From contig JANMQV010000004.1 in assembly GCA_031370645.1 (NCBI GenBank), positions 1 through 14,782 on the forward strand: a DNA stretch of 14,782 nt. The letters are read 5' to 3'. The notes under the pieces were generated by a model. The model worked only from the letters and a program-made list of their open reading frames with translations. It was not told the DNA's origin and did not search any database. The position numbers and the translations under genes were made by a program. The DNA comes from Candidatus Eiseniibacteriota bacterium (GTDB taxonomy: Bacteria > Eisenbacteria > RBG-16-71-46 > SZUA-252). Positions 1-14,782 of the stretch are shown piece after piece. The first letter of the stretch is position 1. Every line of letters begins with the position of its first letter.

Positions 1-1
1 G

Positions 2-1756
2 TTCACGATCCGGCGCCAGCTCCTCGGCAGCGCGCTTCTTGCGCTCGCGGGGTTCGTCCTCTTCGGTCTCGTGGCGTTCGCCACGCTGAACGAACTGAAG
101 ATCAACGGGCCGCGTTATCTCCGCATCATCCAGGGGAAGGACCTGGTGGCCGACCTCGTGCCGCAGCCGGTCACGCTGGTTGAGTCGTACCTGGCCGTCC
201 ACCAGATGCTGGGCGAGACCGATCGCCGCCGGCTGGACGAGCTGATCCGCGATTCGCAGGAACTTCGCGCCGAGTTCGAGGCGCGCCATCAGTACTGGGA
301 GAAGATGCTCCCGGCCGGCGCTCTGAAGACGGCGCTCCACGACCGCGCGTACCCGCCCGCGTCGGACTTCCTCCGCGTCGTGGAGAACGAGTTCATTCCC
401 GCGGTGCGCCGCGGCGACCAGGATGGCGCGCGTCTCATCGCCGACGGTTCGCTGAAGCCGCTCTACGAGCAGCACATGAAAGTAGTGCTCGAGATGGTGC
501 AGCTCGCGACGCAGCAGACGACGCAGGAGGAGAAGGCGGCGCTCGCCATCGCGCGTCAGCGTTCGGCGCTCGTGCCGCTCCTCGGCCTCGTGCTCGCCGG
601 CGTCACGCTTACGATCGGGCTCGTCCTCTCGCGGCGCATCGTCCGCGCCATCGAGCAACTTCGCCGCGTGGCGGAGCGGACGGCGGGCGGCGATCTGACC
701 TGCCGCGTGCCCTATACGGGAAACGATGAGCTCGGGCAGCTCGCCTCCTCCACGAACCAAATGGTCGACTCGCTCCGCGGCGTCCTCTCCCATATCGGGG
801 ACCGCGCCGTGACGCTCGCGACCGCTTCCGAGGAACTTTCGTCCGTCTCGACGCAGATGATCGGAAGCGCGGAGGAGACTTCTCGCCAGGCGAATGTGGT
901 TTCCTCCGGATCCGAACAGATCAGCCGAAGCGTGGAAAGTGTCTCCGTCTCCGTGGAGGAGATGATCGCGAGCATTCAGGAGATCTCGAAAAACACGGGC
1001 GAGGCGGCGAGGGTCGCCACCGTGGCCGCCGGCGAGGCGAGTATCACGAACGCCGCCGTGAACAAGCTCGGCGCGAGCAGTGGGGAGATCGGGAAGGTCG
1101 TGCAGGTGATCAATACGATCGCGCAACAGACGAACCTTCTCGCCTTGAACGCCACCATCGAGGCGGCGCGCGCCGGCGAGGCCGGCAAGGGATTCGCGGT
1201 CGTGGCGAACGAAGTGAAGGAACTCGCGAACGAGACGGCCGCCGCCACGAAGGACATTAGCCGGAAGATCGAGGCGATTCAGGCCGACACGCTCGACGCC
1301 ATCCAGGCGATCGGGAAGATCAGCGAAACGATTCAGCAGATCAAGGACATCTCGAACTCGATCGCGACGGCGCTGGAGCAGCAGTTGGCCACGTCGGGCG
1401 AGATCGGACGCAATCTTACCGAGGCGGCGCGAGGGAGCGGCGAGATCAGCGCCGGCATCGTGAAGGTGGCCGAGATCGCGCGCGACACCGCCGGCAGCAG
1501 CGAGAACACGCAGCGCGCGGCCGAGGAATTGGCCCGCCTGGCCGCGGAACTTCGGGGGCTGACGCAGCGCTTCCGAATCTCGAACGACGGATCGCCCGAA
1601 GAGGGCGACGCTTCGCTCCTGGCGGCGCGGGCGTCGCACGCCGCACCCGCTACGGTGGTCGCGATGGAAGCGGCGAGAGCGGCGCAGGCCGCGCGGGTGG
1701 CGCGCGGCGAAGGACGCCGGGGCGACGACGTCATGCCATTCGCGAACGCGGGTTAA
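2..1756 (+). CDS. Methyl-accepting chemotaxis protein (TM1, helical extracytoplasmic sensor, TM2, HAMP, signalling domain); 5' end lies outside the window
   Basis: The frame is open from nt 2 ([24 protein letters not shown] = TM1), so GTG 71 is not the true start. TM2 is [20 protein letters not shown]. The HAMP segment is ...[27 protein letters not shown]. The canonical tip motif is [37 protein letters not shown]. Confidence 0.96.
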
Positions 1757-1823
1757 CGATGAAGACTCTTGTCCCCAACGAACGGCGCGGACCGCGCGGA
1801 CCGAAACACGGAGGAAATCGATA

Positions 1824-2207
1824 ATGAAGGCCCTCGTAGTCGACGACTCGCGCTCCATGCGAGCGATTCTCTCGAAGCAGCTCCGAGAACTCGGATTCAC
1901 GGTCGTGGAGGCCCCCGGTGGAACGGAGGCGCTTCGGTCTCTGGATCAGGAGGGGCCGTTCGACATCGTCCTCCTGGATTGGAACATGCCGGAAATGGAC
2001 GGGCACGAAGTGCTGACGCTCATCCGGGCGCAGGAGGCGTACAAGGAAGTCCGCGTCATGATGGTGACGACCGAGAGCGAAATGTCTCAGGTCTCCGTCA
2101 CGCTCGAAGCGGGCGCCAACGAGTACCTCATGAAACCTTTCGACCGTGATGCCCTCGTGGAGAAGCTGGTGCTCCTGGGGCTCGACCCGAGCGGCCACAC
2201 GCTGTAA
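1824..2207 (+). CDS. cheY: Single-domain response regulator CheY
   Basis: 127-aa receiver domain with LVVDD, phosphoacceptor LLDWNMP, MMVTT and YLMKPF. A GGAGG RBS lies upstream, and the gene sits between an MCP and cheB. Confidence 0.93.
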   Translation: MKALVVDDSRSMRAILSKQLRELGFTVVEAPGGTEALRSLDQEGPFDIVLLDWNMPEMDGHEVLTLIRAQEAYKEVRVMMVTTESEMSQVSVTLEAGANEYLMKPFDRDALVEKLVLLGLDPSGHTL

Positions 2208-3313
2208 TGGGAGAAGTCATGCGCCGGATTCGCGTGATGGTGGTGGACGACGTCTCCATCGTTCGGAGGCTCGTGACGAACGCGCTCGGCGCCGACCCCG
2301 ACATCGAAGTCGTCGGAGCGGCGGCCAATGGGCGTGAAGCGCTGGAGAAGATTCCGGTCGTGAAGCCCGACCTGGTCATTCTCGATTACGAAATGCCGGA
2401 AATGGACGGCATGGAGACGCTGAAGGAGATCCGGAAGAAGCCGGGCGGCCCGAAGGTGATCTTTTTTTCGTCGTATACGCGGCAGGGCGCGAAGGTCTCG
2501 CTCGACGCGCTCTGGCAGGGAGCGGACGACTACGCGACGAAGGTGACGGCCGACAATCTGGCCGCGGCGACGCTTTGCGTGCAGTCGGAACTCCTTCCGA
2601 AGATCAAGGCGCTCTGCGAGAGCATGGCCGCTCCGCGGAGTCAGGCGCCGGCACCGGTCGCGCTCCCCGCCGCGCCGCCGGCGTCTCCGGCGACGTCCGG
2701 ATCGGGCCTCCACCGCGCCGAAATCCTGGCGATCGGAGCCTCGACGGGCGGCCCTCGCGCGCTCTCGGCCGTGATCGAAGCGTTGCCCGCCGAATTTTCA
2801 ATTCCGATCGTGGTGGTGCAGCACATGCCGCCCCTCTTCACCCGTTCGCTCGCCGAGCGGATCGCCTCCCGGTCGGCGCTTCGTTGCGCCGAAGGCGTGG
2901 ACGGCGCGTTGGTCGAACCGGGTACGGTTTGGATCGCTCCCGGCAACTGGCATATGTCGCTTCAGCGGGAGGGCGCCGACACGCGGCTTCGCCTCACGGC
3001 CGATCCTCCGGAGAACTCCTGCCGGCCATCGGTCGATCCCCTCTTCCGTTCGGTGGCCGAACTTTACGGCGCCGGAGCGCTCGGCGTGATCTTGACCGGC
3101 ATGGGGCAGGACGGGCTCCTCGGCGCGCGGAGTCTCCACGAGCGCCAGGGGAAAATCATCGTGCAGGACGAGGCGACGAGCGTGGTCTGGGGGATGCCAG
3201 GTGCGGTCGCCCGAGCGGGGCTCGCGAATCGAATCGTGCCGCTTCATGAAATGGCCGGAGAAATCCTCAAGCACGTGAGCGCCGCAGGCAGGCGCCGCGC
3301 CACCGTCGCCTAA
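2207..3313 (+). CDS. cheB: Chemotaxis response regulator / methylesterase CheB
   Basis: N-terminal REC (VVDD, ILDYEMP) and a Pro/Ala linker. Catalytic motifs GASTGG (Ser), VQHMP (His), CRPSVD and LTGMGQDG (Asp) are present, followed by QDEATSVVWGMP. The start overlaps the cheY stop (TAATG); ATG 2219, preceded by GGGAG, is an alternative start. Confidence 0.97.
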   Translation: MGEVMRRIRVMVVDDVSIVRRLVTNALGADPDIEVVGAAANGREALEKIPVVKPDLVILDYEMPEMDGMETLKEIRKKPGGPKVIFFSSYTRQGAKVSLDALWQGADDYATKVTADNLAAATLCVQSELLPKIKALCESMAAPRSQAPAPVALPAAPPASPATSGSGLHRAEILAIGASTGGPRALSAVIEALPAEFSIPIVVVQHMPPLFTRSLAERIASRSALRCAEGVDGALVEPGTVWIAPGNWHMSLQREGADTRLRLTADPPENSCRPSVDPLFRSVAELYGAGALGVILTGMGQDGLLGARSLHERQGKIIVQDEATSVVWGMPGAVARAGLANRIVPLHEMAGEILKHVSAAGRRRATVA

Positions 3314-3335
3314 CGCGAGGACCGACACGGACCCC

Positions 3336-4232
3336 ATGGATTCCATCGGTATTCCTTCCACCGCCGAAGTTTTGGATCCGGGCGGTTACGCCTATTTGCA
3401 GCGACTCCTCCTCGAACGGACCGGCATCGTGCTCGAGCCCGGGAAGGAGTACTTGGCAGAGGCGCGGCTTCACGCCCTCATGAAGTCGGAGGGATTCGGA
3501 AGCATTTCCGCGCTCCTCGAAGCACTGCAGATGGACGAGCGGAGGGGCCCGCTCCATCGCCGCGCGATCGAAGCGATGCTGAACGGGGAGACTTCGTTCT
3601 TCCGAGACCACTACCCGTTCGAAGCGCTTCGAACCACGATCCTCCCCGAGCTGATGGCGGCCCGGGCGGGGTCGAAATCGCTGAACATCTGGTGCGGAGC
3701 CGCATCGAGCGGGCAGGAAGCCTACAGCGTCGCCATGCTTTTCCTGGAACACGTTCCAGCGCTCCGGGACTGGAGGGTTCGCATCACGGCGACCGACCTT
3801 TCGGAGGGGAGCCTCCAGCGGGCCCGCGACGGCGTGTACCGGCAGATCGAGGTGAATCGCGGGCTCCCGGCGCCCTATCTGGTGAAGTACTTCGAGCGCT
3901 CGGGAGAAGAGTGGCGGGTGAAGGCGCGGGTCCGGGAAATGGTCGAATTCAGCCACATGAACCTGATCGAACCGTGGCCCAATTTTCCTCGGCCCGACGT
4001 AATTCTCCTGCGAAACGTACTCCTCTACTTCAGTTCCGAGGCGCGGAAGTCGATATTGCAGAACGTAGTGAGAACGCTTCGCTCCGACGGATATTTTTTC
4101 CTAGGGGGCGGAGAGACGATGCTGGCGCTCGATCGCACCTTCGAATCGGTGCGACTCGGAAAGGCCATCTGCTATCGGATCCGCGGCGATCACCCGATCG
4201 GCGCGCCGAAACCGGAGAACACGGCTCGATGA
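3336..4232 (+). CDS. cheR: Chemotaxis protein-glutamate methyltransferase CheR
   Basis: Motifs NGETSFFRD, IWCGAASSGQEAYS, ITATDLS, ILLRNVLLYF and GYFFLGGGE match CheR. Confidence 0.97.
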   Translation: MDSIGIPSTAEVLDPGGYAYLQRLLLERTGIVLEPGKEYLAEARLHALMKSEGFGSISALLEALQMDERRGPLHRRAIEAMLNGETSFFRDHYPFEALRTTILPELMAARAGSKSLNIWCGAASSGQEAYSVAMLFLEHVPALRDWRVRITATDLSEGSLQRARDGVYRQIEVNRGLPAPYLVKYFERSGEEWRVKARVREMVEFSHMNLIEPWPNFPRPDVILLRNVLLYFSSEARKSILQNVVRTLRSDGYFFLGGGETMLALDRTFESVRLGKAICYRIRGDHPIGAPKPENTAR

Positions 4233-4711
4233 GCACGACGACGATCGATCTCCAGGAGTGGCTCGATTCGCTGACCGAGATCGCGAAGCACTACGCCGCC
4301 AACCACCTTCGTTTCGACCGTAACGCCTCGCCGCCGAACCCCGCGGCTCCCAGTGCGCCCCGCCCCGCCGTTTACGTCTCGATTCTCGGCGCGCGGAGCA
4401 GCATGCACCTCGGGATCGCGACGACGCCGGAGGGAGCGCGCGCCCTCGCTCGCGCGTTCCTGGGCATGCGCGGTCCGGAAGAGCTCGCCGATCGCGACGT
4501 TGTGGATGGATTCAGCGAGATCCTCAACATCCTCGCGGGGAAAGTGAAGTCGCGGATGACGGCGCGGGACGCGTCGCTCAAGTTGGGGCTCCCGATGTAC
4601 GTCTCCGGTTCCGTGGGGCACGGCGACGGTACCGAGAAGGCGACCGCCGACGTGATGATGGGTCCGATTCCTTGCCAGATTCAGGTTTTCCGCCAGAGTC
4701 GTTCCGCGTAG
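4229..4711 (+). CDS. cheX: CheX-family CheY-P phosphatase (160 aa)
   Basis: The true start is ATG 4229, overlapping the cheR stop (ATGA); the 339-aa ORF-track version is over-extended. It carries the CheC/CheX motif DGFSEILNILAG (E-x-x-N) followed by LKLGLPMYVSG. Confidence 0.85.
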   Translation: MSTTTIDLQEWLDSLTEIAKHYAANHLRFDRNASPPNPAAPSAPRPAVYVSILGARSSMHLGIATTPEGARALARAFLGMRGPEELADRDVVDGFSEILNILAGKVKSRMTARDASLKLGLPMYVSGSVGHGDGTEKATADVMMGPIPCQIQVFRQSRSA

Positions 4712-4722
4712 GGAGACGCCCG

Positions 4723-6129
4723 ATGAACGCGACCGCACCGCTCGAACACCAGCGCGTATCGGCCACCTGGCTGGCCGGCCTTCTCGCGCTCGCCCTGGCC
4801 GCAATGATTCTCGGCAGGGCCGAACCCGCGCGCGCCGCCGCGAGCCGCGGAACGACGACGCTCACGGGCGTGGTCCCGGGCGAGACGTTCGGCTGCTCTG
4901 TTTCCTCGGCCGGCGACGTGAACGGCGACACCTTCGTCGATGTCATCGTCGGGGCGTACCAGAGCGGAACCGCCGCGAATCCCTCGGGGCGCGCCTACAT
5001 CTACTTCGGCGGACCGCGCGCCGACGAACGGGTCGATGTGGTCCTTTCCGGCGAGGCCGCGGGAGACGCCTTCGGGGTCAGCGTCGCGTCGGCCGGCGAC
5101 GTGAATCATGACGGGTTCGCCGACGTCATCGTGGGCGCCTATGAAAACGACGCGCGCGGAGCGAACGCGGGGCGGGCTTACATCTATTTCGGCGGTGCTT
5201 CGATGGACGACAAGCCCGATGTGGTCCTCACCGGCGAGATGCCGGGCGACGCCTTCGGCTACGCCGTCGCGGGCGCGGGCGACGTGAACCGGGACGGCTA
5301 TTCCGATGTGATCGTCGGCGCGTACGAGAACAGCGCGCGCGGCGCCGGCGCGGGACGCGCCTACGTCTACTACGGCGGTCAGCGCCCCGACCCGGTGGCC
5401 GACGCGATCTTGAACGGCGAAACCGCCGGCGATCGCTTCGGGATCTCGGTCGCCGGCGCGGGCGACGTGAATGGCGACGGATTGGCCGACATCCTGGTCG
5501 GTGCGTATCAAAACGACGCCGGCGGCGTCGACGCGGGGCGCGCCTACCTCTATCTCGGGAGCGCTCGCATCCTCGATCGGGCCGCCACCGTGCTCACCGG
5601 AGCGGAAGCGGGGGACTCGTTTGGATTCGCGGTCTCCACGGCCGGCGACGTGAACAAGGATGGACTGGCCGATATCGTGGTCGGCGCCTACCACAACGGG
5701 GCCGGCGGCAAGGACGCGGGGCGTGCCTACGTCTACTTTGGGGGCAAGTCGGTCTCTCCCGCGCCCGACGTGGTCTTCACCGGCGAGGCGGCGGGCGACG
5801 CGTTTGGTTACGCGGTCGGCTCGGCCGGCGATGCGAACGGAGACGGCTACGCGGACATCCTGATCGGCGCGTACGGAAACGACGCGGGTGGCTCGGCGGC
5901 GGGCCGTGCGTACGTTTACTACGGCGCGCCTACTCCTGATCCGGTGGCGGACTGGTTCCTTACGGGGTTTCAGACGTTGGATAATCTCGGGTTTGCCGTA
6001 TTCGGGGCTGGCGATGTCGATGGCGACGGGTTCGCCGACGTTGTTGTCGGTGCTCCCTATTCGGATGCTGGGCGTGCCTACATTGCCAAGACTGTCGGTG
6101 GGAAGAATCGGCCTGTCGTTACTCGGTAG
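4723..6129 (+). CDS. Secreted FG-GAP repeat protein, integrin-alpha-like seven-bladed beta-propeller (468 aa)
   Basis: ATG 4723 follows GGGAG. A hydrophobic signal peptide (WLAGLLALALAAMILG...ARAAA) precedes seven repeats of FG-x-x-V-x-x-AGD(V/A)(N/D)xDx(F/Y/L)xD-x-x-VGA...GRAY, each with a DxDxDG-type Ca2+-binding loop. Confidence 0.93.
   Translation: MNATAPLEHQRVSATWLAGLLALALAAMILGRAEPARAAASRGTTTLTGVVPGETFGCSVSSAGDVNGDTFVDVIVGAYQSGTAANPSGRAYIYFGGPRADERVDVVLSGEAAGDAFGVSVASAGDVNHDGFADVIVGAYENDARGANAGRAYIYFGGASMDDKPDVVLTGEMPGDAFGYAVAGAGDVNRDGYSDVIVGAYENSARGAGAGRAYVYYGGQRPDPVADAILNGETAGDRFGISVAGAGDVNGDGLADILVGAYQNDAGGVDAGRAYLYLGSARILDRAATVLTGAEAGDSFGFAVSTAGDVNKDGLADIVVGAYHNGAGGKDAGRAYVYFGGKSVSPAPDVVFTGEAAGDAFGYAVGSAGDANGDGYADILIGAYGNDAGGSAAGRAYVYYGAPTPDPVADWFLTGFQTLDNLGFAVFGAGDVDGDGFADVVVGAPYSDAGRAYIAKTVGGKNRPVVTR
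4885..6085 (+). repeat. Seven intragenic degenerate tandem repeats of 183 bp (61 codons)
   Basis: The Asp codon of each AGD motif falls at 4915, 5098, 5281, 5464, 5647, 5830 and 6013, an exact 183-nt period. The outer boundaries are approximate. Confidence 0.92.
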
Positions 6130-6131
6130 GA

Positions 6132-7781
6132 CTAAGAAGCAGCCCCCTCCGGAGCCTTCCAGGGGGTCTTGTTCTTGATGACCTCGATCCGCGCTTCCTT
6201 CAAGGCGGGCACGAACACCTCGACGACCTCCGCCGCGAACTGAGACCCAGCCTTCGTGGTCATCTGTTCCATCGCCTGCTCGGCGGTCATGCCGGCGCGA
6301 TAGGGGCGGTCGGTGGTCATGGCGTCGAAGGCGTCCGCTAGGTTCACGATCTTCGCGTGGAGGGAGATCTCGTCGCCCGTCAGGCCGTCGGGATATCCCT
6401 TTCCGTCCACCCGCTCGTGGTGGTGGCGGATCATGTCGATCGCCCTCTCGAGGAATTTGACGCCGCGAACCATTTCCGCGCCGCGGACGGGGTGCGCCTT
6501 CACCAACTTCCACTCCTCCTCCGTCAGCGCGCCCGGCTTGTGGAGAATTTCATCCTGCGTGTGGACCTTCCCGATGTCGTGGAGGAAGGCGCCGAACTGA
6601 ATCGTCTGGACCTCTTCAGCCGGTAGCTCCATCTCGCGCGCGATCGCGACCGAGTAGGCCGCCACGCGCTCGGTGTGTCCGTGCGTGTAGGGATCCTTCT
6701 CTTCGATCCGCGACACGAGGAGGCGTACCGTCGAGACGTAGGCTTCCTGAAGATCGCGGAAGAGTCGCGCGTTCTCGATCGCGATGCCCGCCGACTCGGC
6801 GAGCGAGCGGAGCATCTCGAGATCCGCGGACTGGAACTCCTGTCCGCTCACCTTCTCGCCCACCGCGACGAGGGCGGAGAGGCGGCCCTTCACGATGACC
6901 GGGCAGACGACCGTCAAGCCGGCCGAGAAGAGACGTCCCACGTCCTTCGCGATGCCGGGATCGCGCTCGAGGGAGGCGAGGCGAACCGATCGCTGGTCCT
7001 CGCCGTCGGCGGGCCGAAGCGCGCGCACCAGATCGCTGCCGTAGGAGAGCGCGATGCCCCGCACTTGTTCTTCCTTCAGTCCCTTGAAGGTTGAGACGTC
7101 GAGGCGGGTCGGGTTCTCGCGGTCGTCGGTGAGGAAGAGACAGGCTGAATTGACGCGCAACTGGCCCATGACGCTCAGAATCAGCGTGTTGAGCAGCGGC
7201 TCCAACTCGAGCGAGGCGTTCAGTTGATGCGTGAGCCCCATGAGCGTTTCGAGGCTGTAGACCTGGAAGCGGAGTTCCTTGTTCCGAACCAGCAGGTCTT
7301 CGCGGTTTCGCTGAACTTCGCTCTCGAGTTCCTGATTCTTCGTCGAGAGAACGTCGTGGCGCTCCATCCGCTCGAAGATGCGCCGCACCTTGATCAGGAG
7401 CTCCTTCGGCGAGAAGGGCTTCGTGAGGTAGTCGTCGGCTCCGTGCATGAGGCCCTGGAGCCGCGAATCGACCTCGGCGCTCGCGGAGACCATCACGATC
7501 GGGATGTGCGCGGTCTCGCGCGTGCTCTTCAGCGCGGCGCAGATCTCGAACCCGCTCTTCTTCGGCAACCGGAGGTCGAGGATCACGAGATCGGGCGCCT
7601 CGCGGCGGACGGAATCGAGCGCTTCCTCGCCGGTCATGGCGGTCTGGACGGTGTAGCCGTTCTGCGAAAGCGAAATCTGAAGCAGGTCGACGACGCGGCG
7701 GTCGTCGTCCACGACGAGAATGGTCCGCTTCGAGCGCACGATGTTCGGATCGGTGGCCGGCCGGAGGCTTTCGGTGGTCAC
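6132..7781 (-). CDS. REC-coiled coil-GAF-HD-GYP cyclic dinucleotide phosphodiesterase (RpfG-like response regulator, 549 aa), catalytic motifs intact
   Basis: Probable GTG start at 7781 with GGAG 8 nt upstream, overlapping the upstream stop (GTGA). REC motifs are ILVVDDD, VILDLRLP and DDYLTKPF. The GAF ends ...AGIAIENARLF. HD-GYP motifs are EKDPYTHGHTERVA, LHDIGK, HPVRG, HHHERVDGKGYPDGL and ADAFDAMTTDRPYR. Confidence 0.94.
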   Translation of the reverse strand: MTTESLRPATDPNIVRSKRTILVVDDDRRVVDLLQISLSQNGYTVQTAMTGEEALDSVRREAPDLVILDLRLPKKSGFEICAALKSTRETAHIPIVMVSASAEVDSRLQGLMHGADDYLTKPFSPKELLIKVRRIFERMERHDVLSTKNQELESEVQRNREDLLVRNKELRFQVYSLETLMGLTHQLNASLELEPLLNTLILSVMGQLRVNSACLFLTDDRENPTRLDVSTFKGLKEEQVRGIALSYGSDLVRALRPADGEDQRSVRLASLERDPGIAKDVGRLFSAGLTVVCPVIVKGRLSALVAVGEKVSGQEFQSADLEMLRSLAESAGIAIENARLFRDLQEAYVSTVRLLVSRIEEKDPYTHGHTERVAAYSVAIAREMELPAEEVQTIQFGAFLHDIGKVHTQDEILHKPGALTEEEWKLVKAHPVRGAEMVRGVKFLERAIDMIRHHHERVDGKGYPDGLTGDEISLHAKIVNLADAFDAMTTDRPYRAGMTAEQAMEQMTTKAGSQFAAEVVEVFVPALKEARIEVIKNKTPWKAPEGAAS

Positions 7782-9508
7782 GAGTTGTTCTCCAGGGACA
7801 GGGGGTCGAATGGATCGGGCGGAGCGCCGGGTGCTTCGCCGTCGGATTCGGAGGACTTCGCGGCCGGAGCCACCGGAATCGTGGCGCCCGAACCGAGCGG
7901 GTCGAGTTCGGCGCGCTCCGCCGGGGCGGCCGCCTCGCGAACTTCGTTCGCGGGGACGTCCAGACGCGGGCGCGAGCGTTTTTCCATCTTCTCCAACACG
8001 GCCAGGAACGTCTCGACGAGCGCGGGGTCGAACGGCGTCCCCCAGTTCTCCGAGATCACCTGCCGCGCCTTTTCGTACGGGAGCGCCCGGCGATAGGGGC
8101 GTTCGCTCGTCATCGCCACATAGGCGTCCACCAGCGACACGATCCGAGCGCCGATCGGGATTTCCTGCCCCTTGATCCCCACGGGATAGCCGTCGCCGCC
8201 CCAGCGCTCGTGATGGTTCAGCACGACCTCCACGACTTCGCGCGGCAGGTTCATCTCCTCGATGATCTGCGCACCCCGCGTCGGGTGCTGCTTGATCATC
8301 GACCACTCCTCCTCAGAGAGATGCGCCGGGTTCTTCAAGATCAGATGGCTCACCGCGATCATGCCGATGTCGCGGAGCACGGCACCGTAGATGAGGCCCT
8401 TCAACTGCTCCTGCGGCAACTGAAGCACGCGGGCCATAGCGGTCACGAATCGAACGACGCGCTCGGTACTTCCCTTCGCGTAGACATCGCGGCTTTCGAT
8501 GAGCGACATCATTCCGCGGACGAGGCCCAGATTCCGTTCCTCGGCCTGGCGGTGAAACCGCGCGTTCGCGATGGCGACCGCGGCCTGGTGTGCCAGAATG
8601 GTGAGGAGGTCGCGCTCATCCTCCTGGAAGGCGCGCCGACCACCTCGTCCCCCGAGGAAAAGCATCCCGATCAGATCCTGACGGATCCAGAGCGCGATCC
8701 CCCACTGGAGCCCGGAACGGCGGAGGAGTTCGGAGATCTCGGAAGCGTCCGCGTCCGGCTGACCGCCGACCATCGCTTCCTGCGATGCCGATGGCGCATC
8801 CACCGCGCCGAGATCGATAAAGATTCCATGCCGCGCGAGCGATTCGATCGTTGCGATCGGGAGAAGCAAGTCGCGGAAGTGATGCTGGCCGAATCCGCGC
8901 ACCTGGCGCGGCGCCATCTGCCCTTCGTGGTCCGGGTCGACGAGGAAGAGCGCGAGGCGCTCCACGCCGAACTGTCCCATCACGCTGAGACTGAAAAGAT
9001 TCAGAACCGCGTCGAGATCGCGCGCGAGGTTCAACCCCTGCGTGATCTCGAAGAGGCTCCGGAATTCGACGATCTTTCGCCGCAACTTGAGGTGGAGCGC
9101 CTGGTACTCCGCGGCGCTCGGACCCGGTGCCGCCGGGGAGGACGCGGTCGCTGCGTTGGCCGTGCCGCCGTTGCCATTGGCCACCTTGCCGGCGGCCGCG
9201 ACGTTCGAGGCATAGATCAGGGCTCCGGTGCCGACGAGCGCCTCGCGAACGCCACCACCGACGCCGTGAACCACGATCCGCCGTTCCGTGCTTTCGTAGA
9301 CGCGCGCCTGACGCTCGAGGACGGCGATTCCGAGCGTGGAAATCTCGCTCACCGACTCCACGTCGAGATGAACTTCCCTGGCGTCACGGGCCTGGCACCG
9401 AAACAGGAGCCGATCGAGCACTCGCGCGCCGTCGGCGTCGATGACACCGCGGAGCGCGAATCGGAATTCGTCGCGCGGAGCGAGCCGTTCGAGCGTGAGC
9501 TGCTTCAT
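7778..9508 (-). CDS. STAS-GAF-HD-GYP protein with a degenerate metal-binding site (probably a catalytically inactive phosphodiesterase homologue)
   Basis: STAS-like N-terminus (FALRGVIDADGA...VHLDVESVSEISTLGIAVL) and a GAF ending HQAAVAIANARF. The HD-GYP region has HHERWGGDGYPVG and RPYR, but LRDIGM replaces LHDIGK and YAKGSTERV replaces YTxGHxERV. The start overlaps the upstream stop (ATGA). Confidence 0.9.
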   Translation of the reverse strand: MKQLTLERLAPRDEFRFALRGVIDADGARVLDRLLFRCQARDAREVHLDVESVSEISTLGIAVLERQARVYESTERRIVVHGVGGGVREALVGTGALIYASNVAAAGKVANGNGGTANAATASSPAAPGPSAAEYQALHLKLRRKIVEFRSLFEITQGLNLARDLDAVLNLFSLSVMGQFGVERLALFLVDPDHEGQMAPRQVRGFGQHHFRDLLLPIATIESLARHGIFIDLGAVDAPSASQEAMVGGQPDADASEISELLRRSGLQWGIALWIRQDLIGMLFLGGRGGRRAFQEDERDLLTILAHQAAVAIANARFHRQAEERNLGLVRGMMSLIESRDVYAKGSTERVVRFVTAMARVLQLPQEQLKGLIYGAVLRDIGMIAVSHLILKNPAHLSEEEWSMIKQHPTRGAQIIEEMNLPREVVEVVLNHHERWGGDGYPVGIKGQEIPIGARIVSLVDAYVAMTSERPYRRALPYEKARQVISENWGTPFDPALVETFLAVLEKMEKRSRPRLDVPANEVREAAAPAERAELDPLGSGATIPVAPAAKSSESDGEAPGAPPDPFDPLSLENNS

Positions 9509-11232
9509 GCCGTTCCGTCCCCGCCTCCGCCCGGTGCCTCGCTCCCTCCGAACGCCGCGCCTCGCAGCCGGCGCATGACGGCCGCCGGATGGAGCACGAG
9601 CGTCACCTGCCCGTCGCTACCGATGATTCCACCGAACACCTCTTCCACCGGGTAGAGCCGCGGCGGAAGCGGCGAGAGGCGCGCGTTCTCGCGCCAGACG
9701 ATTCGATCGAAGCCGATGGCGCCCGTCCCGCCCCCGCAGCGAAGGACGGCGAGCGGCCCGTTCGAGGGCTTCGCCGTTTCGCTGGCGCGACGAGGAAGCG
9801 CGTCGGAGATTTCGATGGCCGTGAAGAGCGACGAAAGCGGAACGACCTCGGGCTGATCGGTACCGCCCACCCAGGAGAGTTCGTCGGCGCTCGAACAGAT
9901 TCGGTCGATGGAGCTCCAAGGGAGCGCCACCCGCTGGCCCGCCGCCTCGACGATGAGGAAGCCACGAAGGGAGCGCGCCATCGGGAACTGGAGATGCAGG
10001 AGTTCGGAACCGTTCTGCCCCGCTTGAATCGTGACGAATCCGCCGAGTTCCTCCAGTCCGCTCTCCAATTGCTGGAGAGCGTCGGGCTCGAAGCGCACGC
10101 GTCCCTCGATGGCGATACGCGCCTCCAGTCCCTCGCGGGCGGCCGTGAGCCGAAGCTCGCGCGTCACCTCGCCCTCGGGGGACACCGCCGTTTCGAGGAG
10201 CCGAAAGAGCAGGGGAAGGAGTATGGCGCCGATCTCCGGTTCGAAGCCCACTCCGCCCGTGTGGACGGTGAGGACGCTTCGCCTGGAGTCTGTGTCGCGA
10301 CGCGAGGCCGCGGCGTAGAACTCGTCGATGAAACGATCGAGCGGATCAAGGAATTCCCAGAGCAGATGCTCGTCGAGATCGCGCGCCCGCCGTTCGAGCG
10401 AGAACTGGATGCCGAGGAGCTGATGGAGATCGTGGACGAGCGTTCGCATCCCGCCCGCCACTTCCTCCAGTTTCTGATGGATCTGAATGGCTCGGGCAGC
10501 GACGGTCGGACCGGGATTCGTGCGCCGGCGGCCGCTCGTGGCGGCGGCGTCCGCCGCGGCGGGTCCGCCGCGCGCCGGATCGATCGCCTTCATGAGCCCG
10601 TCCCACTCGGTGAGGACGCTCTGCATGGAGCGGAGCGTGCCGCCGAGGCCGTCGCTGATCGCGCCGATCCGGTCGTTCTGATGCACGAGCGAGGACTTGA
10701 TCTCGAAGGTGAGCGCGAGGAGGTTCTCGCGAGGCGCCATGTCGGGCGTGACGTCGTCGATGACGCCGCGAGAGGCGTTCAGAGCCTCGGTCTTCGCGCG
10801 GCCGAGCCGGGCGCGCAGCTGATCGACCGCATCGCCGACGGAGGCGGCGTGCGCGAGAAGTGCCGCGAAGCCGTCGGTCCGAAGCTGCTCGGCGAGCTTC
10901 TCCTGCGTCTCGAGCGCGACGCGACAGTGCGTCACGAGTTCCTGGCGCTGCGCCGGGCGGAGGCTCCCCAATTGGTGGAGCGTCTCCCGGAGTTCCCGCG
11001 CCAACGACGCGACCGTGCCGATGTCGAGCCACTCGGCGCTCCGCTCCACGAGCCGGACCGAGAGTTCGACGAGCGGGCCCATCTCGTGCCCCTCCAGCTC
11101 GGGCGTGTCGCTGTCGAGGAAGCGCCGAACGATTTCGATCTCTTCGTGAATGAGCGCGCTGAACGTCGCGCTGAGGCGTGACATCATCTGTTCGTTATTC
11201 AGGTGTTCCGAAGCGGCGGTGCGCATGGTCAT
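9505..11232 (-). CDS. cheA: CheA-like protein (Hpt-like, dimerisation, degenerate HATPase, CheW/P5 domains), predicted pseudokinase
   Basis: The C-terminus matches the CheA P4/P5 region: LEELGGFVTIQ...LHLQFPMARSLRGFLIVEAAGQRVALPWSSI and VFGGIIGSDGQVTLVLHP. DLDEHLLWEFLDPLDRFIDEF resembles the P3/P4 junction (eLqe.vm..RmvPl..lF.rF). The N-terminal helices fit the Hpt pattern. It lies next to an MCP and cheW and has a GGAG RBS. Catalytic boxes are absent, but the frame is intact. Confidence 0.82.
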   Translation of the reverse strand: MTMRTAASEHLNNEQMMSRLSATFSALIHEEIEIVRRFLDSDTPELEGHEMGPLVELSVRLVERSAEWLDIGTVASLARELRETLHQLGSLRPAQRQELVTHCRVALETQEKLAEQLRTDGFAALLAHAASVGDAVDQLRARLGRAKTEALNASRGVIDDVTPDMAPRENLLALTFEIKSSLVHQNDRIGAISDGLGGTLRSMQSVLTEWDGLMKAIDPARGGPAAADAAATSGRRRTNPGPTVAARAIQIHQKLEEVAGGMRTLVHDLHQLLGIQFSLERRARDLDEHLLWEFLDPLDRFIDEFYAAASRRDTDSRRSVLTVHTGGVGFEPEIGAILLPLLFRLLETAVSPEGEVTRELRLTAAREGLEARIAIEGRVRFEPDALQQLESGLEELGGFVTIQAGQNGSELLHLQFPMARSLRGFLIVEAAGQRVALPWSSIDRICSSADELSWVGGTDQPEVVPLSSLFTAIEISDALPRRASETAKPSNGPLAVLRCGGGTGAIGFDRIVWRENARLSPLPPRLYPVEEVFGGIIGSDGQVTLVLHPAAVMRRLRGAAFGGSEAPGGGGDGTA

Positions 11233-11244
11233 CCCTGCTCCGTC

Positions 11245-12822
11245 TTAACTGCGGTGACGCGGCTCGATCCCCTCGAGCCAGTCGGGAATCTTCGGTAGGA
11301 CCAATGAGGCCGGATCGCCCGAACCGTGAGGTTCGGTGGTCGCCGAAGGCGCCGGCGAATCGGGACCGTCCGATCCATCCACCGCCTCCGTCGTCGTTGC
11401 TTCCGCGGGGGTCGACTCCAGGCGCGACGGCTCTTCCGGTACAACCGGCTCGGAATTCGAAACCGTCGGCTCGAATCCTCCGAACGCGACGTTACCGAAG
11501 TCGTTGTGCGTTTCGGACGGAGCGTCATGCGACGCCACGGAAGGCAGGGCGGTGCGCTCCTCGGCGTCCACAAAGCTCACGTGGACGTCGGCCGCGTCCG
11601 CTTCGGACGATTCGGATAGCGTGGGTGCGTGCACATAGGCGGGCCGATCGCTCGTATCGGACTCGACCGCGGCCGAAGCGACGGGGGCGTCGACCGCCAC
11701 CGGCTCCTCACGGCGGACGGCCGTCTTCTCGCGAAGAACGCGAACGCGGTGGAGTAGCGACTGGAGTGCCGTCACGGTCTCCGGCGCGACGCCGTGCGTG
11801 GCGGCTCCGGCGCCCGGTCCCATGGAGGCGACCGCCGCCTTCGCGTCCTCGCTGCTTTCTTGGATGGATGAGATCGTCTCGCAGACCTTGATCTCGATTT
11901 CACCCGAGAGGCGGGAGATCGTGTCGGTTGCTTCGCGCGCGTATTCGGCCAGGCGGCGCGTCTCCTCGGCGATCGAGGCGAAGGCCTCGCTCCCCGAACG
12001 CGTCGCTTCGAGCGCAGCGTTCAAGGCGAGGAGCGTCGCGCGATTCGTCACACGCTCCGCCACGCCCGCCAACTCGCTCGCGCGCATGAGGCCGGCGGCA
12101 AGGTCTTCGATACCGTCGGCAGCGGTCTGCACCAGGGCGTCCACCATCTTGGCCGGCGACGAATCGTGAACCGTCGAACCGGTGGAGCGTTCCGCTTGGA
12201 GCGACGTGACGACCGGCTCCAAGTCGTGCTCGATGGCGTTCAGTTCCTCACGAATCGGCTGGAGCGCTTCCTCCAGTTCGCGGATGACCGCCGCTCGGTC
12301 GTACGCCGGGGCGGAGACGCTCACCGCGTCGTTCTTGCGGACGCCTCCCACCAACTCTTCCTCGCCGTGCGAAGGGCTCGGCACGAACGCTCGCGGCGTT
12401 CCACCGTGCTCTTCGACCTCGCGGCGGACGCGCTCGACTTCCTGAACGGCGAGCGTCGCGGTCCGCTGCGCTTCGACGTGACCGACCGCTTGTGCGTAGA
12501 GCGTGGCCCAAGGCTCGGCGCGGAAACGCGACGGAGGGGTGGCGGGCGCGTTCTCGGCGGTGACCGCCTCGAGAAGCGCGATTGCCTTCACGTCGGGGGG
12601 CGTGCTCTTGATCGTCACGAACGTGGCGACGGACGCGCCCGCGACCGCGATGACCGCTGCGACGGCCAATCCGAGGAAGTCGCCCAAACCGTAGGCGCTA
12701 CCTGCAGCGCCGAGCCCCGTGAGGAGCACGACGGTGAAGATCGCGGCCGTCGGCGAGGGGGGCGACGAAGGCGCTCCCTGGCTCTTCGGAGATTCGTGGT
12801 GATCGCGACCTACGTCCGTCAT
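11245..12822 (-). CDS. Atypical chemoreceptor (MCP-like, 525 aa): hairpin of two TM helices with no extracellular sensor, short divergent signalling domain, long acidic tail
   Basis: ATG 12822 is preceded by AAGGAG. The hydrophobic stretch is AAIFTVVLLTGLGAAGSAYGLGDFLGLAVAAVIAVAGASVATFVTI. The MCP tip-like motif is RATLLALNAALEATRSGSEAFASIAEETRRLAEYAREATDTI. The gene lies between cheW and the cheA-like gene. Confidence 0.85.
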   Translation of the reverse strand: MTDVGRDHHESPKSQGAPSSPPSPTAAIFTVVLLTGLGAAGSAYGLGDFLGLAVAAVIAVAGASVATFVTIKSTPPDVKAIALLEAVTAENAPATPPSRFRAEPWATLYAQAVGHVEAQRTATLAVQEVERVRREVEEHGGTPRAFVPSPSHGEEELVGGVRKNDAVSVSAPAYDRAAVIRELEEALQPIREELNAIEHDLEPVVTSLQAERSTGSTVHDSSPAKMVDALVQTAADGIEDLAAGLMRASELAGVAERVTNRATLLALNAALEATRSGSEAFASIAEETRRLAEYAREATDTISRLSGEIEIKVCETISSIQESSEDAKAAVASMGPGAGAATHGVAPETVTALQSLLHRVRVLREKTAVRREEPVAVDAPVASAAVESDTSDRPAYVHAPTLSESSEADAADVHVSFVDAEERTALPSVASHDAPSETHNDFGNVAFGGFEPTVSNSEPVVPEEPSRLESTPAEATTTEAVDGSDGPDSPAPSATTEPHGSGDPASLVLPKIPDWLEGIEPRHRS

Positions 12823-12841
12823 GGCGCGCTCCTTTGCTTGC

Positions 12842-13336
12842 TCAACGACCGCCGATCCCACTCAGCCGGAAGGCGGCCGGGGGAGCGATCGAATCCATCA
12901 GGGACCAGTAGTCGAGACCGAGAACTTCCCGGCCGGCGATTTCATAGATAGCGAGGACGGCCGGCTCGTCGCGCTCGGCGTCCGGCTCGGCCGCCGGAAG
13001 TTCGCGATGCTGGGCGTCGCGCGAGAGCACGAGCCGCGGCATGCCGCGAACGAGAATCGCGAAGCGATCGGTTCCGCGCTCTAGCACCACCGCATACGCG
13101 CCGGCGCTGGTCGACTCTTCCACATGGAGCGCGGCCGCGAGGTCGAGTACCGGCACGACGCCGCCACGAAACGCCACGACGCCGGCCACCGGCCCGTTCC
13201 GGCCGGGGAGGAGCGAGAGCCGATCCGCGTCGAGAAGTCCGGCCACCTCTTCGACCGGCGCCGCATAGCGAGCGGCGCCCACATCGAAGGTGATCAGACC
13301 GCGCGTGGCGAGAACGGACCGCAGTGGCTCTTCCAT
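12842..13336 (-). CDS. cheW: CheW scaffolding protein (164 aa)
   Basis: ATG 13336 has GGAG upstream. LITFDVGAARYAAPVEEV...LLPGRNGPVAGVVAFRGGVVPVLDL...RFAILV matches the CheW pattern. Confidence 0.9.
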   Translation of the reverse strand: MEEPLRSVLATRGLITFDVGAARYAAPVEEVAGLLDADRLSLLPGRNGPVAGVVAFRGGVVPVLDLAAALHVEESTSAGAYAVVLERGTDRFAILVRGMPRLVLSRDAQHRELPAAEPDAERDEPAVLAIYEIAGREVLGLDYWSLMDSIAPPAAFRLSGIGGR

Positions 13337-13389
13337 CGTTGGCGCTCCGAGGCCGCGAAGGCTTGGGACATGAAGCAGATAAGTGGAAG

Positions 13390-13404
13390 GCAAGGAGCAT
13401 GCCA
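13390..13404 (-). promoter_or_regulatory. Sigma-54 (RpoN) -24/-12 promoter for the cheW-mcp-cheA-HD-GYP operon
   Basis: The minus strand reads TGGCAT-GCTCC-TTGC against the consensus TGGCAC-N5-TTGC, with exact GG-N10-GC spacing. The predicted start near 13378 is about 40 nt upstream of the cheW ATG. Confidence 0.8.
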
Positions 13405-13648
13405 CGAAGCAGCTTTCGCGCCCGGGCGTAACTCCCTGTCTTCCTTCTGCTTCCCTACGTTCCTATCGGCGGGGCAGAAGCGTTCCGGAGCGAATTCAGC
13501 CAGGGGGTGGTTGGCACGTTGCAATCCTGGCCGCAAAACGCAATCAAGCTCGGTCAAGGCGCGAAATTCCACCCAGTCATAGGGCTGAAACAAACCAGCG
13601 GTGGATCGAAGGAGCCGCCGATCGCGTACGGATGGATTCTGGCCATGC

Positions 13649-13669
13649 GGTGTAGTGCGCTGCCACACC
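13649..13669. promoter_or_regulatory. Palindrome GGTGT-N11-ACACC, candidate enhancer-binding-protein site
   Basis: A perfect 5-bp inverted repeat with a TGT-N11-ACA core lies between the two divergent sigma-54-like promoters. Confidence 0.3.
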
Positions 13670-13705
13670 AATGGTTAGGCGACTCGATTCCCCCCACAAG
13701 AGTTG

Positions 13706-13721
13706 CGGCACGGCATGTGCA
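13706..13721 (+). promoter_or_regulatory. Sigma-54-like -24/-12 promoter for the divergent hypothetical gene
   Basis: CGGCAC-GGCAT-GTGCA has exact GG-N10-GC spacing with GGCACG and TGCA cores. The predicted start near 13732 is about 60 nt upstream of ATG 13793. Confidence 0.62.
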
Positions 13722-13728
13722 GAGAGTG

Positions 13729-13777
13729 TCGGACGTGCGTTGCGGTGGTGCAGGGCCGCGACCGACGAAACGTCCGA
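13729..13777 (+). promoter_or_regulatory. Stem-loop occupying the predicted 5' leader
   Basis: TCGGACGT (13729-13736) pairs perfectly with ACGTCCGA (13770-13777). The inner stem GTTGCGGT/GCCGCGAC has two G-U pairs. The structure ends just before the purine-rich RBS. Confidence 0.5.
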
Positions 13778-13792
13778 AAGGGGGAGAGGGTC

Positions 13793-14572
13793 ATGGCGGG
13801 TACGAGAAAGGTCGTCGCGGGAAAGTCGGCTCCACGGAAGGTGCGACCGCACGCCTATGTCGCCATGAACTGTCTTCTGCTGACGCGAGCGGAAGGTACG
13901 CCTCAAAACGGCGATCCACTACCGCAAGAGGATGTGAACGCGTACCTCGAGGCGCTTCGCGACCAATTGGAAGCGAACGTGCCGCTCCCTCCGGAGCGGA
14001 CGCGACTCCTGTCGCGCTACGACATCGCCGCGTGGCGGCGGTTGGCCGGCACGAGCCGCGGCTCGCTCAAGTATCAGGTGCTTCGCACGCCGACCGATCT
14101 CCTTCTCGTCTCGGTGGGAATCTTCGAGCAGAGCGGCCCCTACATTCCGAGCCGTCGCGAGGGGATGCTCCCGGGTGAGGAGGCCGACATGGGCCGGAGC
14201 CCCGGTTGGTATCACTTCTCGTACACGTACGGCGAACTCCTCGAGAACCCGACGTCGACGCTCAGTTCGGTGCTCGAGAAGCTCACGGTAAGTTTGGAGC
14301 GCTATCACAAGATGCTGTCGCACATGAAGGGCGAGTACTGGAGCATGGCGTCCCGATTCGAAGACGCCCAGGTGATCCGCATCGAGCGCACCGTAGACGA
14401 GGAAGCCCGGGAACTGGCGATTCGCGCCATGCAGGACCGGCTTCTCGACGCCTACGCGGAGTGGAAGAAGACGGGCGCCCGGAAACACCTCGACCAGATC
14501 CGCGGCATCGCTCGCGAGATCCGGACTCTCTCGCCTGACTTCACTTTCTCGCTTCCGGCGGGAGGTAAGTAG
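13793..14572 (+). CDS. Hypothetical cytoplasmic protein (259 aa), no family recognised
   Basis: A strong purine-rich RBS (AAAGGGGGAGAGGG) precedes ATG 13793. Third codon positions are GC-rich and the amino-acid composition is globular. The ORF is flanked by a promoter-like motif and terminator-like hairpins. Confidence 0.85.
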   Translation: MAGTRKVVAGKSAPRKVRPHAYVAMNCLLLTRAEGTPQNGDPLPQEDVNAYLEALRDQLEANVPLPPERTRLLSRYDIAAWRRLAGTSRGSLKYQVLRTPTDLLLVSVGIFEQSGPYIPSRREGMLPGEEADMGRSPGWYHFSYTYGELLENPTSTLSSVLEKLTVSLERYHKMLSHMKGEYWSMASRFEDAQVIRIERTVDEEARELAIRAMQDRLLDAYAEWKKTGARKHLDQIRGIAREIRTLSPDFTFSLPAGGK

Positions 14573-14595
14573 CCGGAGCGAAACACGGTCCCCCC

Positions 14596-14643
14596 GCGTG
14601 CCCCTCGGTCCCCCGACCCGACATCTACACCCGGGGGGCACGC
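14596..14643 (+). other. 13-bp GC-rich stem-loop in the 3' region
   Basis: GCGTGCCCCTCGG (14596-14608) pairs with CCGGGGGGCACGC (14631-14643), with one U-G pair and a 22-nt loop. Confidence 0.6.
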
Positions 14644-14670
14644 ATCCCCCCTTCGCAGGGCAGCGCGCAA

Positions 14671-14712
14671 AGAAGGCCGGTCCGAGTCGCGGATCGGCTT
14701 TCTGCGTTATTC
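14671..14712 (+). terminator. Probable intrinsic terminator
   Basis: A 14-bp stem AGAAGGCCGGTCCG / CGGATCGGCTTTCT has a 5-nt loop. Its two G-U pairs form only on the + strand. The 3' side is moderately T-rich (TTTCTGCGTTATT) but lacks a long U-tract. Confidence 0.55.
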
Positions 14713-14782
14713 CAACATCTCGAAGGGCCCGGGCTGGGGAGCGGGAGCATTAAAGGTCGCTGGCCCCGAACTAACAGGGGCC

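Follow-up and report, generated by a model that had tools for sequence, protein, structure and literature searches.

CheA of chemosensory arrays is usually taken as defined by its kinase activity. In Wsp of Pseudomonas, a system of the alternative cellular functions (ACF) class, an active hybrid of CheA and a receiver (REC) domain reportedly phosphorylates a diguanylate cyclase. DivL of Caulobacter is said to have a kinase fold in which the phospho-His is replaced, and to act on a receiver protein through binding, without phosphorylating it. One publication calls DivL a pseudokinase (PMC12471899). For CheA itself, a survey of 13,673 CheAs found HATPase_c in all homologues and regards P1, P3, P4 and P5 as a minimal functional unit (PMC10782961). 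One degenerate case is given there, CheA3 of Cereibacter sphaeroides, with a hidden P3/P4 that lacks helices and Mg/ATP residues (PMC10782961). Herein, we describe a CheA descendant from Candidatus Eiseniibacteriota bacterium (assembly GCA_031370645.1). It is encoded on the minus strand of a 14,782-nucleotide stretch of DNA (contig JANMQV010000004.1, positions 1 to 14,782), which was analysed as a whole and is called the window. The protein, named pseudo-CheA here, has kept the CheA fold and lost its catalytic residues. An earlier note made from the sequence alone had proposed that this gene encodes a CheA pseudokinase with the phospho-His replaced, the ATP lid apparently deleted and P5 retained, and had suggested selection for a structural or adaptor role.

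Reading frame and descent from CheA

The frame of pseudo-CheA (9505-11232) is uninterrupted over 575 codons and encodes a protein of 575 amino acids. Its codon-position GC (0.73/0.48/0.83) matches the pattern of the flanking genes, and the long antisense frames over this region are what a GC-rich genome ordinarily produces. The first ATG has a GGAG 7 nt upstream, and the relatives begin at the second Met, which is residue 3. The stop codon overlaps the start of the downstream gene, which encodes a STAS-GAF-HD-GYP protein, in an ATGA. The gene is thus intact and translationally coupled, as the earlier note had stated.

Standard family annotation overlooks the ancestry of this protein. The earlier note had proposed a search with the Pfam families Hpt, H-kinase_dim, HATPase_c and CheW. 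On the single protein, Pfam gave only a CheW match at residues 425-555, and this was below threshold (17.7 bits against a cut-off of 23.5); the NCBIfam scan gave zero matches. When 30 family members were each scanned singly, CheW was found at E<=1 in 23, and Hpt, H-kinase_dim and HATPase_c were found at E<=1 in none of the 30. A profile of 30 relatives searched against the PDB matched the P4-P5 part of Thermotoga maritima CheA at E 7e-6, from the last P4 helix through P5. The family profile was also aligned with 10 true CheAs by hhalign, which gave a probability of 98.9% and E 1.7e-17 over residues 14-549. A phmmer search against 1.84 billion representatives returned 146 matches. Those outside the family were proteins of 650-1000 amino acids that aligned to query residues ~385-560, and ten of them were retrieved, all canonical CheAs except one lid-less protein, P0220. 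The HMMER alignment to CheA covers the post-G2 helix, the last two P4 strands and P5.

Fold comparison gave the same relationship. The full-length AlphaFold model of pseudo-CheA has a mean predicted local distance difference test (pLDDT) score of 73, and its best 8 Foldseek matches were all P3-P4-P5 regions of CheA. The E values were 2.3e-16 for 6s1k_A, the Escherichia coli core signalling unit, and 4.6e-15 for 1b3q. Foldseek and HMMER together revealed a contiguous P3-P4-P5 fold with the CheA-specific junction between the end of P4 and P5. The open reading frame (ORF) therefore encodes a descendant of CheA in which the CheA fold is kept.

The C-terminal CheW-like P5 domain was recognized by VIA-align, by hhalign and by the profile search against the PDB. 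VIA-align placed model residues 420-553 on 541-671 of 4jpb_A (120 aligned, root-mean-square deviation (rmsd) 3.1, Z 14.8), and hhalign on P5 gave E 1.1e-17. The retention of P5 was thus borne out, though the single sequence lies below the Pfam CheW cut-off. Pseudo-CheA has no P2 domain. In the model, the long helix 93-153 is followed by a short, disordered linker and then by a P3-like hairpin, whose helices (167-217 and 244-294, ~50 residues each) are joined by a variable loop. The superpositions cover CheA P3 from model residues 164-166 on, and E. coli CheA from its residue 264 on. P3 gives no signal at the sequence level (hhalign E 0.14), and two long helices are predicted in the model. Extended P3 domains occur in other CheAs, according to the survey (PMC10782961).

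Loss of the phosphoacceptor and the ATP site

The residue at the phospho-His position is Arg60 (nt 11053-11055), which sits in the helix-B motif VRLVERSAEWL. When residues 4-154 were modelled alone, four helices were obtained with a pLDDT of 82.8. By hhalign, residues 16-121 aligned to 4-109 of the CheA encoded in the same genome, gapless over 106 columns. With this offset of 12, R60 falls on His48, E63 on Lys51, R64 on Gly52 and R82 on Glu70, indicating that the partners of the catalytic His were rewritten as well. VIA-align placed model residues 15..119 on 0..104 of the T. maritima P1 domain (1tqg; 103/105 aligned, rmsd 2.8, Z 11.9); with an offset of 15, R60 then coincides with residue 45, the phospho-His of T. 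maritima CheA. Among 122 full-length relatives, R60, R64 and W68 are each present in all 122 and E63 in 120. No His column is invariant across these relatives, the best being H184 (118 of the 122). The P1 helix B of the family therefore carries Arg in place of the phospho-accepting His throughout, and the profile alignment and the T. maritima superposition agree on the position that the earlier note had assigned. Its suggestion that His29 or His49 might be conserved among orthologues did not hold, for they are kept in only 47 and 21 of the 122, respectively.

The P4-like domain has 126 residues, compared with 187 in T. maritima CheA. By VIA-align, model residues 294-419 superpose on residues 354-540 of that protein (Z 14.8, rmsd 2.5 over 123 aligned residues). 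The predicted order of elements is helix, strand, helix, strand, strand, helix, strand, strand, which corresponds to the order in CheA P4 with the post-G1 helices and the lid taken out. Only ~2-5 residues stand between the G1 position and the post-G2 helix, against ~55 in canonical CheA. The HATPase_c hallmarks are missing from the domain, namely the N-box Asn, the DxGxG of G1, the F-box, the ATP lid and G2. In its small size the domain equals the compact catalytic ATP-binding (CA) domain of DosS, which the model also matches (3zxo; 116/125 aligned, Z 14.5), and DosS is reportedly an active kinase.

The local register from HMMER and hhalign put TGGVG (325-329) on G1 (DDGAG) and DPLDRF on the N-box, and P4 alone gave E 0.039. 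This register was rejected, because neither the structural ranges on CheA, HK853, PhoQ and DosS nor a bridging alignment through P0220 agree with it. The VIA-align ranges on these four proteins start at the very beginning of the CA domain. The lid-less CheA P0220 aligns nearly gap-free to the query from residue 343 on; its own alignment with canonical CheA is unambiguous through the N-box and G1, and is followed by 7 residues where canonical CheA has 55. In the favoured register, the N-box helix spans 332-348 (LLPLLFRLLETA), R344 takes the Asn position, and G377-x-V379-x-F381 stands in place of DxGxG, the post-G2 helix following immediately. Asn never occurs at position 344 in the 122 full-length relatives, 114 of which have Arg there; position 378 varies freely, and hydrophobic residues occupy 379 and 381. 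The N-box and G1 assignments of the earlier note are thus backed by the structural ranges and by the transitive alignment, its claim that the F-box, lid and G2 are absent fits the lengths given above, and the superposition on T. maritima CheA that it proposed gave alignments for both P4 and P1. In neither register is the Asn of the N-box, the Asp of G1 or any G2 box recovered, so canonical ATP binding by pseudo-CheA is judged very unlikely from these residues.

Selection, distribution and operon context

A word-indexed protein search returned 180 relatives of pseudo-CheA. The 120 relatives that were listed are 52-96% identical to the query, with coverage of no less than 94% of its length in every case but one. 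Those with names are mostly called hypothetical protein, and the named sources are mostly metagenome-assembled genomes of Candidatus Eisenbacteria. Pairwise ratios of nonsynonymous to synonymous substitution (dN/dS) against seven loci were 0.084-0.265 overall and 0.05-0.37 in individual regions; these values are only rough because dS is high (0.5-1.3). By this measure, constraint on the P1-like and P4-like parts is no weaker than on P5. Columns that are at least 95% identical make up 32% of the P1-like part, 24% of the linker and P3, 33% (41/125) of the P4-like part and 33% of P5. The gene is under strong purifying selection with all domains constrained, and the loss of donor and acceptor chemistry is real and ancient.

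The distribution was assessed in 201 genomes of the phylum, of which 40 carry the gene, including its own genome. Pseudo-CheA was present, in single copy, in 39 of the 40 other sampled genomes of one GTDB family with four genera, and the one family genome without it is 63% complete. It was found in 0 of the 160 sampled genomes of 17 other families of the phylum, one of which (G015) is flagged as unpublished. Within this sample, pseudo-CheA is therefore family-wide and belongs to one GTDB family.

The order of the operon is CheW, methyl-accepting chemotaxis protein (MCP)-like receptor, pseudo-CheA, STAS-GAF-HD-GYP and REC-GAF-HD-GYP (Table 1), and it is fixed across the related loci. STAS-GAF-HD-GYP lies directly downstream of pseudo-CheA in 35 of 36 related loci, and in the remaining one the contig ends. 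REC-GAF-HD-GYP comes next in 27/36, the rest being cut by contig ends, and CheW is found upstream in 27/36, the other 9 having at most 1.8 kb of upstream sequence. Pfam detected no HATPase_c in any of the five operon genes.

Table 1. Coordinates in the window of the operon genes and of the domains of pseudo-CheA
Feature	Position	Strand	Basis
CheW, first operon gene, exact start uncertain	12842..13405	(-)	Pfam CheW E 5.1e-17
MCP-like receptor	11245..12822	(-)	Pfam MCPsignal E 1e-9, residues 237-345 of longer frame
Pseudo-CheA gene, 575 codons	9505..11232	(-)	Open frame; Foldseek and hhalign relation to CheA
P1-like four-helix bundle, residues 3-125	10858..11226	(-)	Domain model, 1tqg superposition, hhalign
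Long connecting helix and extended P3-like helical hairpin; no P2	10351..10857	(-)	Predicted secondary structure, VIA-align
P4-like Bergerat-fold remnant, residues 295-419	9976..10350	(-)	VIA-align, bridging alignments, residue tables
P5 (CheW-like) domain, residues 420-557	9562..9975	(-)	VIA-align, hhalign, profile against PDB CheA, Pfam CheW
STAS-GAF-HD-GYP, degenerate metal site	7778..9508	(-)	Pfam; orthologue alignment; ATGA junction
REC-GAF-HD-GYP	6132..7781	(-)	Pfam; sequence; GTGA junction

The two HD-GYP proteins differ in their active sites. In STAS-GAF-HD-GYP, the HD pair reads RD (R379, D380) in 28/28 orthologues; the first metal-binding His is gone, and HHE..GYP remains. The phospho-Ser position of the STAS domain is not conserved among the orthologues, and the full-length matches among those listed came from the same family only. 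This protein is probably a pseudo-enzyme itself, judging by its motifs, which would place two degenerate enzymes side by side in one operon. REC-GAF-HD-GYP, by contrast, appears to be a complete HD-GYP protein by motif, with all receiver residues, HD and HHE..GYP intact. No other gene of the operon is as well conserved (71-95% identity), and its GTG start overlaps the stop of the STAS gene. The selection for a non-catalytic role that the earlier note had proposed is supported, because dN/dS is low, the dead domains are as conserved as P5 and the gene order is fixed; the structural or adaptor role itself is something we infer.

The MCP-like receptor has a likely ATG at 12822 that is preceded by AAGGAG, two N-terminal hydrophobic segments and a short signalling hairpin tip. 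Its C-terminus is a long, low-complexity acidic tail rich in Pro, Ser and Thr. The receptor diverges much faster than its neighbours, with tblastn coverage below 40% in most loci past the close relatives. On the other side of CheW, a divergent gene of 289 amino acids (13703-14572, plus strand) has no Pfam or NCBIfam match, and its locus is conserved beside CheW in related contigs, as seen from antisense tblastn matches. A minus-strand ORF at 13919-14641 was considered as the conserved upstream gene and was ruled out, since codon-position GC favours the plus-strand gene.

Convergent to the operon are an FG-GAP protein and a canonical set of CheX-like, CheR, CheB, CheY and MCP genes. The FG-GAP repeat protein (4672-6129, plus strand; Pfam E 7e-54) stands between the canonical che genes and the pseudo-CheA operon; its gene is syntenic in related loci and inverted in two of them (L012 and L014). 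The CheX-like domain (Pfam E 2.3e-10) lies at 3692-4711 on the plus strand in a frame that overlaps the end of cheR, and its start is probably downstream of 4232. The genome itself has one H-kinase_dim match, which lies on a short contig (G000:C170, L001) and is a canonical CheA with every kinase box present. In two relatives with contiguous sequence, the canonical CheA lies ~11.5 kb from pseudo-CheA on the strand of the convergent cluster (G054:C1:2988659-2988832 and G115:C11:982548-982721). As read by eye, a second CheW-like stretch appears to follow P5 in this canonical CheA.

An ancestral operon with a live CheA was sought in other families of the phylum and was rejected. Four regions there (L038-L041, in G081, G027, G096 and G165) contain REC-GAF-HD-GYP homologues of 43-48% identity, with no CheA, pseudo-CheA, CheW or STAS-GAF-HD near them. 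The genome of one of these regions, G081, has no H-kinase_dim match at all.

Possible roles and comparison with known systems

On balance, we lean towards pseudo-CheA being a non-catalytic receptor-complex scaffold for the co-operonic HD-GYP proteins. In this reading, which is somewhat favoured as a whole, pseudo-CheA has neither canonical ATP binding nor a phospho-His. Pseudo-CheA would assemble as a dimer, through P5 and P3, with the co-operonic CheW and the membrane-anchored MCP-like receptor in a core-unit-like complex. Its conserved and chemically rewritten P1 and P4 surfaces may hold or allosterically control the two co-translated GAF-HD-GYP proteins, and the state of the receptor would be passed to the hydrolysis of cyclic di-GMP (c-di-GMP) through protein contacts, not through phosphorylation of pseudo-CheA. 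The intact receiver of REC-GAF-HD-GYP is probably phosphorylated by another kinase, and the obvious candidate would be the only canonical CheA, ~11.5 kb away in the convergent che cluster. We put forward only tentatively, as possible and still rather doubtful, a chemoreceptor core complex that signals without phosphotransfer of its own. In such a complex, changes in the receptor would run through the dead CheA to the HD-GYP phosphodiesterases. Docking or allosteric sites would be provided by the former active face of P1 (Arg60, Glu63 and Arg64) and by the P4 pocket, now empty. If true, this would be a phosphorylation-independent output mode for chemosensory arrays.

Several points weigh against the scaffold. 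Contact between pseudo-CheA and any neighbour is itself something we infer, and the intact REC implies that phosphorylation still matters somewhere in the module. The structural evidence throughout comes from AlphaFold models (mean pLDDT 73 for the full-length one), and in P4 the local sequence aligners and the structure give two competing registers. A lid-less CA domain alone is no proof that ATP is not bound, considering that the model matches the DosS CA domain (3zxo). For P1 alone, hhalign gave E 0.0016 in one comparison and a probability of 16%, and Foldseek with the N-terminal model gave no match at E<=0.001, the best being E 0.084. The top Foldseek rows for this model contained plant HPt proteins and CheA P1 domains among designed bundles. 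In the VIA re-ranking, CheA P1 came first (Z 11.9) but was tied with generic four-helix bundles (11.8 and 11.5). The predicted fold by itself would thus be insufficient to prove P1 ancestry; descent of the bundle from CheA P1 is a reasonable reading because of where it lies in the protein and because hhalign matches it over 106 columns without a gap.

The same P1 surface can be read in another way. The helix-B surface that in P1 normally looks towards a receiver is invariant here around R60, E63 and R64, REC is intact, and a true CheA lies ~11.5 kb away. Pseudo-CheA might accordingly be a receiver-directed regulator like CheA3 or DivL, which binds REC or REC~P as a phosphatase or as a reader (reverse signalling), the phosphate coming from the true CheA. 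The survey describes C. sphaeroides CheA3 with a degenerate, helix-deleted HATPase_c and extra Hpt domains without His (PMC10782961), and a second source describes CheA3 with a phosphatase domain for CheY6 (PMC6829392). However, contact with the receiver and kinship to the phosphatase region of CheA3 are conjecture, and this regulator overlaps with the scaffold; we consider it rather improbable as a separate explanation. A sensor of nucleotide or c-di-GMP would place the ligand in the remodelled P4 pocket or at the invariant Arg-rich P3-P4 junction (LERRARDLDE, which contains RxxD), from where it would act back on the receptor complex. Enzymes of the c-di-GMP type are encoded in the operon, blocks 279-303 and 325-335 are invariant, and the CA domain of CckA is said to bind c-di-GMP. 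Yet the proposal amounts to motif spotting, and we regard it as unlikely.

An unconventional kinase or phosphotransfer protein would use, for example, His184 on the first P3 helix, like a dimerization and histidine phosphotransfer (DHp) domain, with a compact lid-less ATP site. The frequency of H184 (118/122) and the resemblance to the compact DosS CA domain are in its favour, whereas H184 is Arg, Ser or Asn in the other 4 of the 122 relatives, including one that is 89% identical, and the N-box Asn, G1 and G2 are lacking whichever register is used. Such an activity is very improbable. Finally, all catalytic motifs are lost, as would be expected of a functionless, decaying relic of a duplicated cheA. 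This is contradicted by the selection data, since the frame is intact, dN/dS is 0.084-0.265, the gene is in 39/40 family genomes and 41/125 P4-like columns are at least 95% identical, and we give it almost no credence.

A CheA that lacks donor and acceptor chemistry and is maintained under strong selection, next to enzymes of the c-di-GMP type, CheW and its own receptor, suggests that array architectures can also be put to use purely as scaffolds or allosteric devices. The family also offers a natural test case for which functions of CheA are structural, and a way to approach the wiring of chemosensory modules to second-messenger turnover in an uncultured soil lineage. Proteins of this kind are probably missed by surveys, because only a weak Pfam CheW match sees them. 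In the literature covered, which left out subscription journals and the supplementary tables of PMC10782961, no description of a kinase-dead CheA of this kind was found. Among the papers found on Eisenbacteria and chemotaxis, none dealt with pseudo-CheA, judging by title or abstract.

Compared with canonical CheA of T. maritima and E. coli (P1-(P2)-P3-P4-P5), pseudo-CheA has the same domain order, with the folds of P4 and P5 matched and those of P1 and P3 predicted to be similar, and it is likewise encoded with CheW and an MCP-type receptor. It differs in having Arg for the phospho-His, a P4 shorter by ~60 residues without the N, G1, F and G2 boxes, an extended P3 and no P2, and its operon has HD-GYP proteins in place of CheY. 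A further comparison is with rare lid-less CheAs (P0220, P0268, P0269 and P0270), which were 4 of the 120 matches listed. They share the deletion between G1 and the post-G2 helix (~48 residues in P0220) and the absence of a Pfam HATPase_c. In contrast to pseudo-CheA, they have Pfam-detectable Hpt (its His was read in P0220 only) and H-kinase_dim; they also have CheW, and they are nearer to ordinary CheAs (~30% identity) than to the pseudo-CheA family; 2 of the 4 are automatically annotated as CheA. Judging by these four proteins with intact Hpt, the same lid deletion apparently arose elsewhere too.

Like the pseudo-CheA operon, Wsp of the ACF class reportedly ties a chemoreceptor, CheW and a CheA-type module to c-di-GMP metabolism, whereas pseudo-CheA is dead and its neighbouring enzymes are of the HD-GYP type, one of them degenerate. 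DivL shares the kinase fold with a replaced phospho-His, but is said to be a HisKA-type kinase whose CA domain has the usual length and which has neither a P5 nor a receptor-array context. For a degenerate P4, the best precedent in print is C. sphaeroides CheA3, in which an internal P3/P4 is structurally kept and non-functional and copies of Hpt lack the His (PMC10782961). According to the same survey, CheA3 keeps a functional N-terminal P1 His that is phosphorylated by CheA4 from the same operon (PMC10782961). The pseudo-CheA operon contains neither half of such a split system, a functional P1 His or a P3-P4-P5 kinase partner like CheA4, and its co-operonic proteins are of the c-di-GMP type. 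With Arg in its only P1 and no kinase partner in its operon, the pseudo-CheA family goes beyond CheA3.

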